Assembly (NCBI GenBank): GCA_041649025.1
Contig: JBAZNY010000001.1
Span: forward strand, 8,207 to 72,206
Reading direction: 5' to 3'
Length of the DNA: 64,000 bases
Source: Bdellovibrionales bacterium
Lineage (GTDB): Bacteria; Pseudomonadota; Alphaproteobacteria; UBA9219
Both the position numbers and the translations under genes were made by a program. Positions 9,701-53,071 of this stretch are shown here, in pieces. Position 1 is the first letter of the stretch. Each line of letters begins with the position of its first letter. The notes beneath the pieces are model-generated. The model searched no databases, was not told where the DNA came from, and was given only the letters and a program-made list of their open reading frames with translations.

Positions 9701-10678
9701 GTGGGCTCGCAAATTTCCACAGCAAATGCGATAAATTCGCTTATAAAACAAGCGGATAATGCTGGTGCGTCTTCGCGTGTTATTCGTGCAATTCAAAACG
9801 CTGCGGCCAAGACAGGTGTCGATTTTTCCTATCTTTTGCAAAAAGCATCGCAGGAAAGCAGTTTTGATCCTTTGGCTACAGCCACAACAAGTAGCGCTAC
9901 CGGATTGTTTCAATTCACCAATCAGACATGGTTGCAGGTGGTCAAAAACTATGGAGATCAATATGGCCTTGGCAATTATGCCGCGCAGATTACGTCAGAT
10001 TCTGACGGCCGTTTAACCGTTGAAAATTCGGAAATGCGTAAGGCTATTTTGGCTTTACGCAAAGACCCTAATATCTCAGCGGAAATGGCCGGTGAATTGG
10101 ATAAAGAAAATGCCGCAGCGCTTCAGCAAAAAGTTGGAGGCAAGATCGGTGGAACTGAGCTTTATCTTGCCCATTTCCTTGGTGCAGGAGGGGCAAGCAG
10201 TTTTATTCGCGAGCTGCGAAATAATCCCAAAGCTGCTGCTGCAGAGATTTTGCCTACAGCAGCGGCTGCAAATCAGTCAGTATTCTATGCAAAGACGGGC
10301 GAAGCGCGTTCTTTGCAACAAATTTATCAACGTTTTTCAGAGAAATTCGACTCCGGCCTGAAGCAAGTCGCAAGCTTATCATCAAAAGCCTCGACGACAA
10401 AATTGTCAGAATTGTCCCCTTCGGCCAATATAACGGAAGAGACATCTACGGTTTCGCGAGCATTGGCTGTCACCAACGCTATTTCTTCTCTTCATTTGCA
10501 AACAGGGGCGGAAAACACAACTCTTGCTTCAAATAGAATGTCGACACTTTTTAATGCAATGATATTTGGACAAATTCAAGATATGCAACTAAACACGACA
10601 TCTTCGCTATCGATTGTTAATCAAGAAGTTGATGGCAAGAGGAAAAACGCTAATTCTATTTTATCCGCAGCAGCGTAA
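9701..10678 (+). CDS. Lytic transglycosylase (SLT domain) protein with a low-complexity C-terminal tail
   Basis: The SLT catalytic block is ...LLQKASQESSFDPLATATTSSATGLFQFTNQTW.... The ORF opens at TTG 9626, but GTG at 9701 has a GAGGAG RBS 7 nt upstream. No signal peptide is evident. Confidence 0.6.
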   Translation: MGSQISTANAINSLIKQADNAGASSRVIRAIQNAAAKTGVDFSYLLQKASQESSFDPLATATTSSATGLFQFTNQTWLQVVKNYGDQYGLGNYAAQITSDSDGRLTVENSEMRKAILALRKDPNISAEMAGELDKENAAALQQKVGGKIGGTELYLAHFLGAGGASSFIRELRNNPKAAAAEILPTAAAANQSVFYAKTGEARSLQQIYQRFSEKFDSGLKQVASLSSKASTTKLSELSPSANITEETSTVSRALAVTNAISSLHLQTGAENTTLASNRMSTLFNAMIFGQIQDMQLNTTSSLSIVNQEVDGKRKNANSILSAAA

Positions 10679-15482: not shown

Positions 15483-17515
15483 GCTCCCATGAAAGCAGAA
15501 ACCACCAAATCAATCGCCTTAATTCCCACGAACGGCACTACAATACCCCCCAGGCCATAAATAAAAAGATTTCGCCGTAAAACGATATTAGCGGGCGCAG
15601 GAGAAAATTTCACGCCGTTTAAAGCCAAAGGTACAAGCGCGATCAGAATCAGGGCGTTAAAAATAATCGCAGACAAAATAGCGCTTTCTGGACTATGGAG
15701 ATGCATAACATTTAAGGCCTTCATGCTGGGATATATGCTTATGAGCAAGGCTGGAAGAATTGCAAAATATTTAGCAACGTCGTTGGCGAGCGAAAAAATC
15801 GTAAGTGTACCTCGACTCATCAAGAGTTGTTTCCCGATCATGACAATTTCGATTAATTTAGTGGGGTTATTGTCCAGATCGACCATATTGCTTGCTTCAC
15901 GGGCAGCCATTGTTCCAGCGTTCATGGCAACGCCGACATCAGCTTGCGCAAGGGCAGGGGCGTCATTTGATCCATCTCCACACATGGCAACCATTCTGCC
16001 AGAAGCTTGCTCTTGTCTTATGATGGAGAGCTTCATTTCAGGAGAAACCTCTGCCAGAAAATCGTCAACTCCGGCTTCTGCTGCAACGGCCGCAGCTGTA
16101 ATCGGATTATCGCCCGTGAGCATTATTGTCCGGATGCCCATACGTCGCAAAGCAGCGAAGCGTTCATAAATCCCAGGCTTAATTACATCTTTCAAATGAA
16201 TAATACCCAGAATGCTTTTATTCCTTGCAACCAACAAAGGGGTGCCGCCTGTTTTTGCGACTCGTTCGATAGCTAATGCAATTTCCAGGTTTTCCTTGAT
16301 ATTACAATACGCAAGAATTGTATCAGGAGAGCCTTTGCGAATGGAAAGGCCGTTGATGTCAACACCGCTCATGCGCGTATTGGCGCTAAAGGGAACAAAC
16401 TCCATATTTGGTTTATTAACGGTTTCTGCAGTTAATCCAAAATTTTCTCTGGCTAGACGAACGATAGATTTTCCTTCTGGAGTCGTATCGGCTAAGGAGG
16501 AGAGCAAAGCGGCTTCGACTAAAAATATTTCCCCAATACCGTAAAGGGGAATAAATTCGCTAGCCATCCGATTTCCAAACGTTATGGTTCCTGTTTTATC
16601 GAGCAACAAAGTATCTATGTCCCCGGCAGCCTCTACGGCGCGACCAGATTTAGTGATAACGTTGAACATAACCAGTCGATCCATGCCGGCAATTCTAATT
16701 GCGGAAAGAAGACCGCCGATTGTTGTTGGGATTAAGGAAACAAACAGCGCAATCAGATAAATGACAGGAAGAAGTTTGCCGCTGTAGGCGGCAAAGCCTT
16801 GCAATGTTACACAAACAATTAGGAATATCAGGGTCATTCCAACCAAAAGAATGTTCAACGCAATCTCGTTCGGCGTTTTTTGTCGACGTGCGCCCTCAAC
16901 TAATCCGATCATGCGATCAAGAAAAGCTTCGCCGGGATTTGCGCAAATTTGGACGATAATCCGGTCAGAAATAATTCGTGTGCCGCCGGTAACGGCTGAA
17001 CGGTCGCTATCGGATTCGCGAATAACGGGTGCGGATTCGCCGGTAATTGATGATTCATCGACAGTGGCGATACCTTTGACAACATCACCATCTCCAGGAA
17101 TAATGTCCCCCACCTCAGCTACGATTAAATCCCCCGTTCGCAGTTCTGCAGCAGGGACGATCGTAAAATTTGTTGCATCAATGCTCGATATTTTTTTAGC
17201 GAGAGTTTCCGTTCTTGTTTTACGTAAACTATTGGCTTGAGCTCTGCCGCGGCCTTCGGCGAGGGCTTCGGCAAAATTTCCGAACAGAACAGTAAACCAC
17301 AGCCACAGAGATATTTGTAAATCAACGGCTGAAAAAGCTCCTCCAAAAGCGTTACGCAAGGTTAAAAAGGTAGCCCAAAGGCTCGCGACGCCGACTGTAA
17401 ACATGATAGGATTTCGGATCAAAACCCTTGGTTTAAGCTTAATAAATGCCCCTCTTGTTGCTGCACGCAACAGATCCGGATCGAATAAAGATGAGCGTTT
17501 GTGTTTTTTGGACAT
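15479..17515 (-). CDS. kdpB: K+-transporting P-type ATPase subunit B
   Basis: DKTGTIT phosphorylation motif, TGDN and [10 protein letters not shown]. It is 678 aa. Confidence 0.95.
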
Positions 17516-47772: not shown

Positions 47773-48147
47773 ATGCCGGAAAGCCTTATGCGCGCGAAAA
47801 TCAAGGAAGCTTTGGCGGCGACGGGTCAAAATCGACACGACGCTCACAAGCTCCTTATCACATGGGCTGTACGCGATCCCGCATTGCTCTTGGCAATGAC
47901 CAAACCTCATCTCAAAGCGATAGCCACGGGGCATATCGACCATTATTTGAGGCTTACCTCTGACAACAATGTGGACGATTCAAGCCCCGAAAAACTATCG
48001 CGTTCTGCCATCGACGATATCGTCTCATCGTCGCGGCTTCCCTCTGACAGGCGTCAAAATCCGGCAGTGCCTCCGCCAAAATCGACCGAACGCCAGGCTT
48101 CGACAATGCGCAAATTAGCCGCAGCGTTTACGAGGAAGAAGAAATAA
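47773..48147 (+). CDS. Hypothetical protein (124 aa, basic C-terminus)
   Basis: An ORF immediately downstream of clpX with no recognised motif. Confidence 0.35.
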   Translation: MPESLMRAKIKEALAATGQNRHDAHKLLITWAVRDPALLLAMTKPHLKAIATGHIDHYLRLTSDNNVDDSSPEKLSRSAIDDIVSSSRLPSDRRQNPAVPPPKSTERQASTMRKLAAAFTRKKK

Positions 48148-48574: not shown

Positions 48575-48690
48575 ACGACGAATTAATTACTCCACGTCTC
48601 CCAATCTCTTTTCGAGATTCGAGAAGCGCGTGAACTGTCCATCGACGTGCAGCTTGATCGTGCCGATGGAATTCCGGGGACACAATACTT
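48575..48690 (-). repeat. Left (attL-like) direct repeat: a displaced, diverged copy of the dnaB 3' end
   Basis: A 45-nt stretch (48587-48631) is identical to the 3' terminus of dnaB including its stop, followed by about 58 nt at about 80% identity. The reverse strand encodes ...PRNSIGTIKLHVDGQFTRFSNLEKRLGDVE*, against ...RHGPIGTIELHFDGQFTRFSNLEKRLGDVE* in the real dnaB. Confidence 0.8.
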
Positions 48691-48935
48691 AATGACTGTC
48701 AAATTTGCGGAAAATGGTTAAAGAGGAACTGCCGAATTGAGGTGGCGGACTCCTTTTGCTGCCGAAAAATGAGGATGTTCTATATTTGTGGTTAAGAGGT
48801 GAGCAGAAAAAACTCTCCATATTCTTGGGAACAGGAGGGTTTTTATGCATAGAAAGTATTTTAATCACAGACTCTGGTCTGGAAGATCAGTAAAGATAGA
48901 GCCTTATAAGAATCTGGCTTTGCCATAATGCGAAT

Positions 48936-51263
48936 ATGAAAAACCGTTTGGAAATTATTACTGAAGCCGTTTCTCGCGCCCTTAAGGATGGCACGTTATC
49001 GCCTGGACGGCCTCTTAACGTTCCACAGAAGGAAGCTCTTAAGGGGTATCTTGCTTTTTTATCATCGCCGAACAGTCCCGAAGACCTCAGCCGCGCTTAC
49101 GTCGACATGGCAACAGGCACCGGAAAGACCGGATTGTTCGCTGTCATAACGCGCTATGCCCATTTGGTTGCACAGGAGCGGGGACAAGGGGAACATTTCA
49201 AAACAATCATCGTCGAACCAACTACACTGCTTCTGGAGCAGACGAGGGACGAACTTGCAACGGTCATACCCGAACTCAAAGAGGATATCGGCATTTATGG
49301 CGGCGGAAGCAAAGAGCTTGGTCAGCCTATCACGATTATGACTTACGACGCGTGGGTTGAGCTTTTCGAAAGCGGCCAGATGCGCGCCGAAGATATCGGA
49401 CTGCATATTACGGACGAGGCTCATTATGGGCTATCTGTGCGTCGCCAGCAGCTCATGAATGATCGCATGGCAAACACTGTTCATTTTGGTGTGACGGCAA
49501 CGGCTGAATACGATCAGGAAAAGACGCTTGAACTGACTCATCGCAATATGGTGTATCACATCGGTATAAATGAGGCGATTGAACAGGGCTTTTTATCCGA
49601 ATATGCACATGTTCAGTATGCAATCATGCGCGTTGTACCGTCCTTGACCGATCCCGCGAGAACGGACATCGATAATAAAGAGAAATTGGTATTCAAGAAG
49701 CAGGAATGGTCTCGAATGGTGGTTAGTACCTATGCCACCATGGAAGACGGAATTAGCGGGCAACCACTCTCCGATAAGATTGCCATTTTCTTTGCTGCTG
49801 ACACCCGCCACGCCGATGATCTGGCTGAGGAACTGAATAAAAACGATGACCTTCAGAAGAAAGCTCGCGCCAACGGTTTTGATGGCGTGGCTATTTCGGT
49901 ACATTCAGTAGGCCATAGCAGCGCGGAACAGAACCGTCGGCTCGAAGCTTTTAAACAGGGCCGCTATATGGCCGTAGTGGGCGATCAAAAATTCAAGGAG
50001 GGTTTTAATTTTCCGCGGGTTAAGTTCATAGCAAGCTATCCCGGAAACTCTTTAGTCGATACTGTTCAAAAATTGGGGCGCGCCATGCGTTCGTGGACCG
50101 CCCCTCACACCTCAACGCCCCAGGGAACGGTTATTCTCGAAGCGATCCCCTACATCGGAGATACCGAGCCTGTACTGGATAAGAGATCGCGCAGCTTCGC
50201 AATGGCCCACTGCATTACGGCCTATGACATTCTCAAAGGGACGACGGTCCTTGCTCCTGGGCGAGAGGTTAGGCCATCCCAAAAAACCAGCGGACACAGA
50301 GAGCGGCTCCTTTCCCCAACCTGTACGGTTGAAGTATTCACGACAGATGAAGAAACATTGACCATAAGCCAGCAAATTGATGGTGCTCGGGCTATAGACC
50401 GCACTCCGCTTACGGAAGAGATGATTGCTGAGCTTAAGAACAAAATTGCCGAACATGGCGGCTGGGGAGCTGATTGGTTAGCCAAAGCGGTCGCTCAATA
50501 CGAGCGAGACAACAATCTTCAAGACAGCGGTTTGACGGACGGCAAAATAGTCACCCTTATAAACGGGCAATTGAAAACGTTTGACGCCGAACAATGGAAA
50601 AGGCTGAACGACACCTTGGATTCAATTCCGAAGAGTTCGCTCAATCTGAAGCTCAGACACGCGGGTTCCGGTTCAGGCAAGGTGTGGACCGTTGACAAGA
50701 CAGAAAAGACCCTCCTTTTTGAAAAACAAGACAGCATTTCGCAAAATGAAAGAACGCGGTTCTTTTGGGCAATGATGCTGATGAACCTCGGTGCAGATAT
50801 AACGACAAATCGTGCATCATTATTTTCTCCGCTACGGCCCTCTGAAGGATATTTGGTATCTGCATTTGCGCAGGTCTATCTAGCTTATTGGAAAGCCGCT
50901 CAGCCAAAAAATATTTCCTATCGCTCGGGTCTTCCGACAGACCTAATCATCGATAACTATCCGGAAATGGGAGAGCTTTTTGATGCCTATGCGAAAGCGG
51001 TTATGCGAAGAGGAAAACGAAACGACACAAGACTCGCACTAGGCACAAAGGCCATTCAATCTGGAATGAAGTTTTTGGAGGACTTTCGCTCTTCTTATTC
51101 TTTGGAGATATTCAAGGCGCTCGAAGAAGAATGGATTCAAAAGATTAAAACCCCTGTGGATCAAGCAATCATGCAGACTGTAGATGCAGAATGGGGCGCT
51201 GCGTCAGGCCTCCAGGATCCCATGGCGAATTCTACATCTCTCGTTGTTCCATCGCCGCCATAA
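48936..51263 (+). CDS. SF2 (DEAH-type, ResIII-like) helicase-domain protein with an unassigned C-terminal domain of about 390 aa
   Basis: Motif I DMATGTGKTG, Ia IIVEPTTLLLEQT, II ITDEAH, III TATAEY, a V-like block AVVGDQKFKEGFNFPRVKF and VI QKLGRAMR. The C-terminal half has no motif I can recognise. It is the only gene in the islet. Confidence 0.75.
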   Translation: MKNRLEIITEAVSRALKDGTLSPGRPLNVPQKEALKGYLAFLSSPNSPEDLSRAYVDMATGTGKTGLFAVITRYAHLVAQERGQGEHFKTIIVEPTTLLLEQTRDELATVIPELKEDIGIYGGGSKELGQPITIMTYDAWVELFESGQMRAEDIGLHITDEAHYGLSVRRQQLMNDRMANTVHFGVTATAEYDQEKTLELTHRNMVYHIGINEAIEQGFLSEYAHVQYAIMRVVPSLTDPARTDIDNKEKLVFKKQEWSRMVVSTYATMEDGISGQPLSDKIAIFFAADTRHADDLAEELNKNDDLQKKARANGFDGVAISVHSVGHSSAEQNRRLEAFKQGRYMAVVGDQKFKEGFNFPRVKFIASYPGNSLVDTVQKLGRAMRSWTAPHTSTPQGTVILEAIPYIGDTEPVLDKRSRSFAMAHCITAYDILKGTTVLAPGREVRPSQKTSGHRERLLSPTCTVEVFTTDEETLTISQQIDGARAIDRTPLTEEMIAELKNKIAEHGGWGADWLAKAVAQYERDNNLQDSGLTDGKIVTLINGQLKTFDAEQWKRLNDTLDSIPKSSLNLKLRHAGSGSGKVWTVDKTEKTLLFEKQDSISQNERTRFFWAMMLMNLGADITTNRASLFSPLRPSEGYLVSAFAQVYLAYWKAAQPKNISYRSGLPTDLIIDNYPEMGELFDAYAKAVMRRGKRNDTRLALGTKAIQSGMKFLEDFRSSYSLEIFKALEEEWIQKIKTPVDQAIMQTVDAEWGAASGLQDPMANSTSLVVPSPP

Positions 51264-51309
51264 ATTTATTATCCGACCGCTCGGCAGGGGTGGTTTGCGC
51301 GCCAATTCA

Positions 51310-51460
51310 GCCTATAGCTTGAGTCACAGGCTATAGGTTGAGAAAAGGGCCGAATAGACAGCTTATAGTTCAAAAAAAACACGAATATTCAAACTATAGT
51401 TCAAGAAAATCGGAAAATACCGATTTTAATAAATGCCAAAAAACTCAGGCTATAACCTTA
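51310..51460. repeat. Block of five iteron-like 12-mers (YTATAGNTYRAR) in direct orientation
   Basis: CTATAGCTTGAG (51312), CTATAGGTTGAG (51331), TTATAGTTCAAA (51363), CTATAGTTCAAG (51394) and the degenerate CTATAACCTTAG (51450), in AT-rich DNA between the helicase gene and the right repeat. Coordinates are ±1. Confidence 0.5.
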
Positions 51461-51552
51461 GGCAAATTCTAGGGACACGTGTAAAACTCTGGGAGAAAAT
51501 AATCGTGGACTGACGGGAGCAAAAGCAAAGAAGTCGCTTGAGAAGATAGAAA

Positions 51553-51669
51553 TGACAACGAATGCTTACTCCACGTCTCCCAATCTCTTTTCGAGATTCG
51601 AGAAGCGCGTAAACTGGCCGTCAAAGTGCAGTTCGATTGTCCCAATGGGGCCGTGGCGTTGTTTGGCCA
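51553..51669 (-). repeat. Right (attR-like) direct repeat, the functional 3' end of dnaB
   Basis: The same 45-nt core is followed by the genuine dnaB coding sequence. Similarity to the left copy extends about 12 nt beyond the stop. Coordinates are ±1. Confidence 0.8.
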
Positions 51670-53071
51670 CGAGAATTTCCGCAATGTTTTTGACTTCCTC
51701 GCCGCGCGACATCCAACGGCTATAACGGTCATTAAACCGGCCTTCGTCTTCATCTTGTCGGCGGCTCGGTTCGCTGCGCGCATGATAATATTCTTCGCGG
51801 TAGACAAACATCACGACGTCGGCGTCCTGTTCGATGGAGCCGGATTCACGTAAGTCCGCCAATTGAGGCTTTTTGTCTTCGCGCATTTCAACGGCGCGGG
51901 ATAGCTGCGATAGAGCAAGTACAGGAACATCCAATTCCTTGGCTAACGCTTTGAGACTACGGGTAATTTCAGATACTTCCTGTACGCGGTTTTCCTCGCG
52001 CCTAGTCCCTGTTCCGCGCAGCAATTGCAGGTAATCAATGATAATAAGGCCTAAATTGGGAACCATACGCTTAAGTCTCCGTGCGCGTGTGCGTAAGGCG
52101 GCGACGGAAAGGCCAGGTGTATCGTCGATATAGAGAGGCACGCGCGATAAGATCTGTGATGCTTCGACAAATTTCGTGAAGTCCTCGGTTTTGATTTCTC
52201 CACGGCGGATTTTATCGGAAGGCACGCTGGAAAAATCGCCTAATAAGCGCGTTGCTAATTGTTCGCTCGACATTTCAAGAGAGAAAAAAGCAACACCCGA
52301 TCCTTCGCGTCCCTCGCTTTTAAAATAAGCATGAGCGGCATTAAAGGCCATGTTGGTAGCCAACGCGGTCTTACCCATCGACGGGCGTCCAGCTAAAATA
52401 ACCAGATCTGAACGCTGCAAACCGCCCATCATGCGATCCATGCTGGTAAAGCCCGTCGTGACGCCTGTGATATGGTTGTCGCGTCGATGAGCTTCTTCGG
52501 CAAGCTTGATGGAAACGAATAACGCTTTTTCAAGTTTAACAAAACCACGATCGGTTTCGCCCGTGCGTGCCAGTTCGAACAATTTGGCTTCTGCGGATTC
52601 GATCTGCGATGATGCCGGCTTTTCGAGATCTTGCTGGAAAGCCTCGTTGACGACATCGGTTCCAAGCGATATCAACTGACGGCGCAGATGGAGGTCGTGG
52701 ATCAGGTGCGCGTAATCTTCGACGTTAAAAATCGTAACGACATTGGCGGCCAGATCGACGAGATAGTTTGCGCCGCCGACCGCTGCGAGGGCGGGATCAT
52801 TTTCGAACAAGCCGCGCAATGTCTTGGGATCCGCAATTTGACCGCGATTGATGAGTGTCGCAATCGCGCCATAAATACGGCCATGAACGGGATCGTAAAA
52901 ATGATCTTGTTCAAGAAACTCGCATATTTTTTCATGAACGACGTTGTTGACAAGCAAAGCGCCCAGTAAAGCCTGTTCGGCCTCAATGTTGTGTGGAGGT
53001 GTACGAACGGCGCCAATGGCGTCAGAAGACGAAACGGCGCGCAAAGCTGGAAGATTGGATGAATTTGCCAT
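51566..53071 (-). CDS. dnaB: Replicative DNA helicase DnaB
   Basis: N-terminal domain, Walker A GRPSMGKTALATN, Walker B and RecA-fold motifs (...LIIIDYLQLL...). At 501 aa it has no intein. Confidence 0.95.
   Translation of the reverse strand: MANSSNLPALRAVSSSDAIGAVRTPPHNIEAEQALLGALLVNNVVHEKICEFLEQDHFYDPVHGRIYGAIATLINRGQIADPKTLRGLFENDPALAAVGGANYLVDLAANVVTIFNVEDYAHLIHDLHLRRQLISLGTDVVNEAFQQDLEKPASSQIESAEAKLFELARTGETDRGFVKLEKALFVSIKLAEEAHRRDNHITGVTTGFTSMDRMMGGLQRSDLVILAGRPSMGKTALATNMAFNAAHAYFKSEGREGSGVAFFSLEMSSEQLATRLLGDFSSVPSDKIRRGEIKTEDFTKFVEASQILSRVPLYIDDTPGLSVAALRTRARRLKRMVPNLGLIIIDYLQLLRGTGTRREENRVQEVSEITRSLKALAKELDVPVLALSQLSRAVEMREDKKPQLADLRESGSIEQDADVVMFVYREEYYHARSEPSRRQDEDEGRFNDRYSRWMSRGEEVKNIAEILVAKQRHGPIGTIELHFDGQFTRFSNLEKRLGDVE

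Follow-up and report, generated by a model that had tools for sequence, protein, structure and literature searches.

The stretch of 64,000 nucleotides (nt) analysed here, called the window below, comes from the assembly of a bacterium filed under Bdellovibrionales (contig JBAZNY010000001.1, positions 8,207 to 72,206), and it raises the question of what a single large helicase gene is doing on its own between two direct repeats at the end of dnaB. The open reading frame (ORF) at 48936-51263 (+) encodes 775 amino acids (aa) from an ATG start, which agrees with homologues that share its N-terminal helix. An earlier note, made from the letters alone, described it as a superfamily 2 (SF2) helicase fused to one uncharacterised C-terminal domain, and as a candidate single-gene defence or mobile-element protein. 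The ORF list, Pfam matches, a family alignment and an AlphaFold2 (AF2) model resolve it into a complete frame for an SF2 (ResIII/XPB-like) helicase, one helix-turn-helix (HTH)-like unit and an orphan tail. The explanation favoured here, tentatively and with somewhat less than even confidence, is that the product is a DNA translocase with HTH modules, carried as mobile-element cargo and having a conflict- or defence-like role.

The assignment of the gene to the ResIII/XPB-like SF2 DNA motors is confirmed by sequence and model, and an ATP-driven translocase or helicase is the predicted product. RecA-like domain 1 (residues 28-191; 49017..49508, +) matches Pfam ResIII at 1.8e-17 (64 bits against a cut-off of 22.5) and DEAD at 8e-11, and is modelled with a predicted local distance difference test score (pLDDT) of 82-95. 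It carries the Q motif (Q31), motif I (DMATGTGKTG, the Walker A motif, residues 57-66), motif II (ITDEAH, the DEAH box, residues 158-163) and motif III (TATAEY, residues 185-190). RecA-like domain 2 (residues about 280-390; 49773..50105, +) contains the motif V block (GDQKFKEGFNFP, residues 349-360) and motif VI with its arginine finger (QKLGRAMR, residues 378-385). This second domain is recognised by its AF2 fold and by Foldseek matches to SauUSI, RadD and XPB, the Helicase_C profile staying below the Pfam threshold (20.7 bits vs 23.5; 5e-4). The two RecA-like domains stand in tandem within residues 1-485 of the AF2 model, which was built on the family alignment and is mostly above pLDDT 70 over that range. 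The motifs I, II, III, V and VI listed in the earlier note, as well as its ResIII/DEAD-like core, are indeed present, and the motifs are invariant in the family. Specifically, the alignment of 10 family members has 50 invariant columns, all 50 of these core residues are kept in the window's copy, and the invariant positions include T60, G63, K64, T65, D160, E161, H163, T187, A188, Q378, G381, R382 and R385.

The closest structural matches of the core model in the PDB, as ranked by Foldseek, are the SauUSI helicase domain, RadD and archaeal XPB (E ~1e-13), and sequence and profile searches of the PDB also place XPB/Rad25 first. The window protein is therefore best compared with XPB/Rad25 (SSL2), archaeal XPB-Bax1, the SauUSI helicase domain and RadD, all of which are alike in having two RecA-like domains and motifs Q, I, Ia, II (DEAH), III, V and VI. 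However, its identity to XPB/ResIII-type translocases is only 17-22%, and it has neither the damage-recognition or thumb domains of XPB nor a partner nuclease gene such as bax1. It also has neither the PLD nuclease nor the DUF3427 domain of SauUSI: in the comparison with the SauUSI-type profile only residues 53-386 align, with positions 244-545 of 953, and no PLD or DUF3427 match is found. What sets the family apart from these translocases is a 95-aa extension of the core and the presence of HTH-type units.

These features make up much of the C-terminal half, which is not a single domain of about 390 aa as had been supposed, but consists of an extension, one HTH-like unit and a tail. The core extension (residues 391-485; 50106..50390, +) mixes strands and helices, aligns in all ten family members and is modelled mostly at pLDDT 61-88. 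The single 74-aa unit that comes next (residues 492-565; 50409..50630, +) models confidently as a lambda-repressor/POU-specific-like HTH, a bundle of 4-5 helices in which helix 2, a turn and helix 3 are arranged as expected of that fold. Compared with lambda-repressor-like (Xre/Cro/CI) and POU-specific HTH domains, the window unit has no Pfam HTH_3-type match, two short beta-strands bracket it, and in the family such units form tandem arrays fused to a helicase. The units as a whole have no Pfam family membership, since only one of 33 matches HTH_31 (E = 0.032) and none passes the cut-off. A PDB profile search with the unit gave nothing significant, and a unit-profile search for other carriers in a set of 5.8 billion proteins gave nothing at E <= 1e-3. 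Arrays of the 74-aa unit are also present in proteins with no detectable helicase domain (P0019, P0013, P0018 and P0022), P0019 being a protein of 990 aa with 10 units.

The number of units per homologue varies from zero to nine, always in tandem where there are several: P0001 has nine and P0004 seven, six other members have three to six, P0005 has one, and the two paralogues at locus L019 have none. The relatives closest to the window protein (about 50% identity) have lengths of 1227-1266 aa and contain 3-9 units as well as additional C-terminal regions. The window's copy is thus an atypical and possibly degenerate member of its family. Judging by the sequence, its 210-aa tail (residues 566-775; 50631..51260, +) would be a lineage-specific segment standing in place of the rest of the HTH array. 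The tail resembles nothing within the helicase family, and in a full HMMER scan of 1.84 billion representative proteins its only match is an identical fragment of the same gene. Its AF2 model consists of helices only, with zero beta-strands and pLDDT <50. The possibility that it is a frame-shifted or degenerate relic of further HTH units was ruled out with a hidden Markov model of the repeat, which found the one known unit and no other in six frames of 50301-51600.

An atypical copy of this kind invites the explanation that the gene is a decaying relic, in which the HTH array and the original C-terminus were deleted, the frame runs into unrelated sequence and no current function is left. The contrast between one unit with an orphan tail and the longer, multi-unit relatives is what this explanation would predict, and it is also consistent with the loss of a conserved Arg from the window's unit and with the loss of a recombinase from the surrounding DNA. 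However, the 775-codon frame is uninterrupted, a stop-free tail of 210 codons is unlikely by chance, and the tail shows the codon-position GC pattern of a frame that is read (GC1>GC2, i.e. more GC at first than at second positions). With the complete set of invariant core residues in place, and with the identical gene present in three independent samples, outright decay is an unlikely account of the locus.

The tail is also where the earlier note had placed a candidate PD-(D/E)xK nuclease core, on the strength of a D...ExK-like string, PTDLIIDNYPEMGELFDAYAK, at residues 667-687. This candidate is unsupported, because the tail has no conservation on which the motif could lean and no predicted beta-strand: it lies in a segment that has no homologues and a helices-only model of low confidence, and Pfam and NCBIfam give no nuclease family match for the window protein. 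On the string depends the proposal that the gene is a single-protein helicase-nuclease abortive-infection factor whose tail is a divergent PD-(D/E)xK nuclease, as in Hna or Nhi. Hna of Sinorhizobium is a protein of 845 aa with an SF2 DinG/XPD-like helicase followed by a C-terminal PD-(D/E)XK nuclease (PMC13381803), and the likeness is real in that both are single large SF2 proteins of similar size, from alphaproteobacterial-type hosts, and lone (in the case of the gene studied here, acquired) cargo. It ends at the domains themselves. The core here is XPB/ResIII-like, with best matches to XPB, SauUSI and RadD, whereas that of Hna is DinG/XPD-like (PMC13381803), and the conserved nuclease of Hna has no detectable counterpart in the low-confidence tail model. 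Since no other family member has the tail or any nuclease domain, the helicase-nuclease architecture finds no footing either here or in any homologue, and this explanation is very improbable.

If the domains do not explain the gene, its surroundings say more about how it came to be where it is. An 83-nt direct repeat, present in two copies, bounds a 2.9-kb islet whose sole gene is the helicase; outside the shadow of the helicase frame the islet has no ORF of >=60 aa. The right att-like repeat (51566..51648, -) is the 3' end of an intact dnaB (51566..53071, -), the replicative helicase gene that served as insertion target. The left one (48587..48669, -) repeats the last 27 dnaB codons and the stop in a displaced or foreign form, with the 45 nt by the stop identical to the live copy. 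Differences between the two are very unevenly spread, with 0/45 nt by the stop codon vs 10/38 nt beyond it (Fisher p = 2e-4). Of the eight codons that differ, six do so only by synonymous changes at the third position, so the left copy appears to have evolved as real dnaB coding sequence elsewhere, and it looks like a dnaB end from another lineage and not like a decayed duplicate. The pattern of differences therefore points to recombination in a conserved core at the dnaB end; such recombination at a gene 3' end is the usual signature of integrative elements that target these ends. Codon usage is equally telling, as the helicase scores 0.014 against 0.076 +/- 0.023 for host genes and lies below every one of the 25 neighbouring genes tested (minimum 0.041). 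That the gene stands alone in a small acquired islet, as had been proposed, is thus borne out.

By its repeats and gene content the islet looks like a decayed integrative element of the cis-mobilizable (CIME-like) kind, with attL/attR-like repeats, because it contains no integrase and has retained both the dnaB-end repeats and a cluster of 14-nt repeats. What the islet shares with CIME-like elements is a short segment without integrase or transfer genes, flanked by direct repeats to which the 3' end of the target gene belongs; here the att-like repeats are 83 nt long with a 45-nt identical core, and no integrase, excisionase or transfer gene lies between them. The differences are that dnaB is the target, that searches brought up neither a cognate integrase nor a related intact element, and that mobilisation is putative. 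There is no recombinase family match among the called genes and no integrase anywhere in the 64-kb window, and the sequences of the att core and of the 14-nt cluster are absent from the viral contigs searched for a cognate element.

The islet and its gene were recovered in identical form from three independent samples. An independent assembly has a short contig (L002, Logan SRR8542065, 2735 nt) that corresponds to 48602-51336 of the window and carries the helicase alone. One of its ends falls within the 45-nt repeat core and the other among the CTATAG repeats, and both are the product of assembly breakage at repeats, not a sign of a free element.

The repeats in question form a cluster of five 14-nt copies (RSYTATAGNTYNAR, core CTATAG) at 51306..51457, directly 3' of the gene and 110-260 nt inside the right repeat. 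Four copies have one orientation and one is inverted, all within 150 nt and around an A+T-rich centre. The rest of the 64-kb window contains three one-mismatch matches, and the non-coding 5' flank of the islet (48670..48935, +, 266 nt) has no copy and no ORF of note. The "iterons" mentioned in the earlier note are therefore real repeats, and they are candidates for either recombinase arm-type sites or iterons in the strict sense.

Which of the two they are matters, because the main rival to the cargo explanation is that the gene encodes the islet's own replication or mobilisation helicase, whose HTH unit would recognise the five repeats as an origin or a site like an origin of transfer (oriT) and would unwind DNA there, as Rep proteins of SaPI or P4-type elements do at iterons. 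The position of the cluster and its A+T-rich centre speak for this explanation, and so does the presence of an HTH-fold unit in the protein. Conservation of the arrangement, which would be expected of an iteron replicon, is absent: none of eight homologous genes has a comparable cluster within 500 nt. Lying 110-260 nt from the att-like core, the repeats could also be recombinase arm-type sites. Moreover, the replication initiator helicases of such elements are hexameric enzymes of SF3, SF4 or SF6 and not ResIII/XPB-like SF2 proteins, and SF2 ResIII-type enzymes are not known to act as replicon initiators.

The genomic contexts of the homologues bear on the same choice, and they support the association with mobile elements that had been suggested from the window alone. 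At L004 the homologue adjoins a MobA/MobL relaxase, a tyrosine integrase and a Fic gene; at L006 it adjoins genes like DotB, DotC and DotD, i.e. those of a Dot/Icm-like type IV secretion system (T4SS); at L019 a tandem pair lies between a serine recombinase and an integrase fragment; and at L005 another tandem pair lies in a region rich in insertion sequences (IS). Relaxase, T4SS and recombinase neighbours are what an element's own mobilisation helicase might be expected to have. At L008, however, the homologue is distal cargo on a P4-like island made up of integrase, AlpA, Toprim and DUF3631 genes, and this island already encodes its own primase-helicase (Toprim + DUF3631). Furthermore, four intact copies persist alone, without element machinery and in unrelated housekeeping contexts: the window's own, one between coaE and aroE (L003), one between pntA and acrB (L016) and one 3 nt from rho (L018). 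A helicase acting on adjacent iterons, which the earlier note had offered as its alternative, is accordingly improbable, though it is the rival that deserves most weight.

Several details of these loci are worth recording in their own right. The tandem paralogue pairs occupy 10001-15788 of L005 and 6796-12844 of L019, and such pairs may mean that some family members work as heteromers. In L005 a perfect 92-nt direct repeat (9921-10012 and 16938-17029) brackets the two helicase paralogues together with two HTH_3 genes; it adjoins an IS3-like element, and its first copy includes the first 12 nt of a helicase gene. No other flanking direct repeats were found around homologues. Two of the lone homologues are inserted very tightly, 16 nt from the aroE stop (L003, 5655-5670) and 3 nt from the rho stop (L018, 12797-12799), and at neither locus are flanking repeats detectable, unlike at the window's islet. 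On a speculative and rather unlikely reading, such tight lone insertions at the ends of housekeeping genes could even reflect an unusual, integrase-independent mode of spread.

A different reading of the neighbourhood is that the host has domesticated the gene for a part in DNA repair, replication restart or transcription, and that the gene sits by dnaB and mfd because of its function. The window is otherwise ordinary core chromosome (kdp, flagellar genes, secDF, gcrA, lepA, greA, clpPX, dnaB, mfd), the islet has a PNPOx-like gene and dnaB as its neighbours with mfd near dnaB, and in its core the protein is similar to XPB and RadD, which are repair helicases. The flanking repeat nevertheless shows insertion, not co-evolution, and the contexts of the homologues are unrelated to one another. 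The distribution of the family counts against a host role as well. About 20 homologues are known, all from Alphaproteobacteria or Micavibrio-type metagenome-assembled genomes (MAGs); 11 proteins matched among 5.8 billion clusters, nine of which are true family members; and among 185,579 species genomes there are about seven family loci, all in MAGs labelled Alphaproteobacteria, Rhodospirillales, Micavibrio or Pseudobdellovibrionaceae. The family is therefore rare and patchy, and not the universal core gene in a fixed context that would have spoken for housekeeping, and a host-factor role is very unlikely.

In tblastn searches of plasmids and phages the matches reach <=28% identity and cover the helicase core only, so a phage or plasmid origin was rejected; those in IMG/VR are mostly at 20-25% identity and again confined to the core (one 166-residue segment reaches 33%), and those in BFVD are only generic SSL2-like helicases. 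No true family member was found in the phage, plasmid or IMG/VR collections.

With regard to the host itself, NCBI labels the source MAG 'Bdellovibrionales bacterium' (MFA4993733.1), yet GcrA is encoded in the window, and the DnaB there is of alphaproteobacterial type (PRK09165). Since Micavibrio, too, is placed in the Bdellovibrionales by NCBI, the host is probably a Micavibrio-like predatory alphaproteobacterium. The same window holds, between clpX and the PNPOx-like gene, an ORF of 124 aa (47773-48147, +) that has no Pfam or NCBIfam match and a codon-usage score of 0.004, as atypical as that of the helicase; it may be foreign DNA that arrived earlier in the same place. An Rfam scan returned only a distant tRNA-Met and no other non-coding RNA.

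In comparisons with known systems, every one of the nearest sequence models describes a translocase of restriction or defence type (PbeA, SauUSI-type, DpdF, dnd_restrict_1 and the EcoAI R subunit), and PADLOC matches PbeA at 5e-12 and the SauUSI-type model (mREase_IV) at 3e-8, in the helicase core only. PbeA (a PADLOC candidate system), DpdF, dnd_restrict_1 and type I R subunits are indeed the best matches in the defence library, but all of them to the core, with scores far under the cut-offs (28 bits vs 600 for dnd_restrict_1) and without partner genes. A type I or III R subunit is likewise not indicated, the neighbours being the PNPOx-like gene and dnaB instead of methyltransferase or specificity genes, and the NCBIfam EcoAI R match reaching 25.9 bits against a cut-off of 550. 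The suggestion of a known single-protein defence system was accordingly dropped, as the matches stay at the level of the generic core and the neighbours of the homologues include no known defence genes.

Taken together, a cargo role is favoured because lone intact copies persist without element machinery, because the P4-like island at L008 has a primase-helicase of its own, and because the nearest sequence models all belong to restriction- or defence-type translocases. On this cargo explanation, recombination within the final 45 nt of dnaB would have brought the islet in. Either the HTH unit or the tail would direct the motor to certain DNA or to a partner, and ATP hydrolysis would drive translocation or strand opening, remodelling or clearing nucleoprotein complexes on invading or competing DNA. 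The gene would thus travel as cargo of the element and earn its keep in contests with other mobile DNA, without encoding a nuclease.

A number of observations weigh against this explanation. At the level of the protein, a net charge of -4 and a pI of 4.8 make the HTH-like unit of the window's copy acidic, and the Arg that is conserved in the family is missing from it, so that DNA binding by this unit is doubtful as far as its sequence can tell; the orphan tail may be a recent fusion without function; and neither a nuclease nor any other effector domain was detected in any family member. As for defence, the matches to defence models are limited to the generic helicase core, and ten neighbours of homologues gave no defence match apart from another helicase. 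The relaxase or T4SS neighbours of some homologues fit element maintenance equally well. Finally, no empty site that would date or prove the insertion was found in relatives: identical PNPOx and DnaB proteins occur only on islet-bearing contigs, and the closest metagenome relatives of DnaB are <=77% identical and not syntenic.

A broader proposal can be attached to the cargo explanation, namely that helicases with C-terminal Xre/POU-like HTH arrays form a new class of nuclease-free, element-borne motors, in which the array would recognise recurring features of DNA and the motor would then dislodge or block replication or transfer complexes of foreign origin, which would amount to a new kind of defence or inter-element conflict system. 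As a general claim about the family this is speculative and rather unlikely. We did not find a description of an SF2 translocase combined with a tandem repressor-type HTH array.

The practical value of this particular copy, with its one unit and orphan tail, is limited. Elements of this type can be traced cleanly by their use of the dnaB 3' end for integration and by the scar of foreign dnaB sequence that stays behind. Should the family prove functional, it would add an architecture in which an SF2 translocase is fused to a tandem repressor-type HTH array, with integrative elements of Alphaproteobacteria, Micavibrio-like ones among them, as its carriers. It would then also represent a candidate nuclease-free mechanism of defence or of competition between elements, and a natural motor addressed by modular DNA-reading units.

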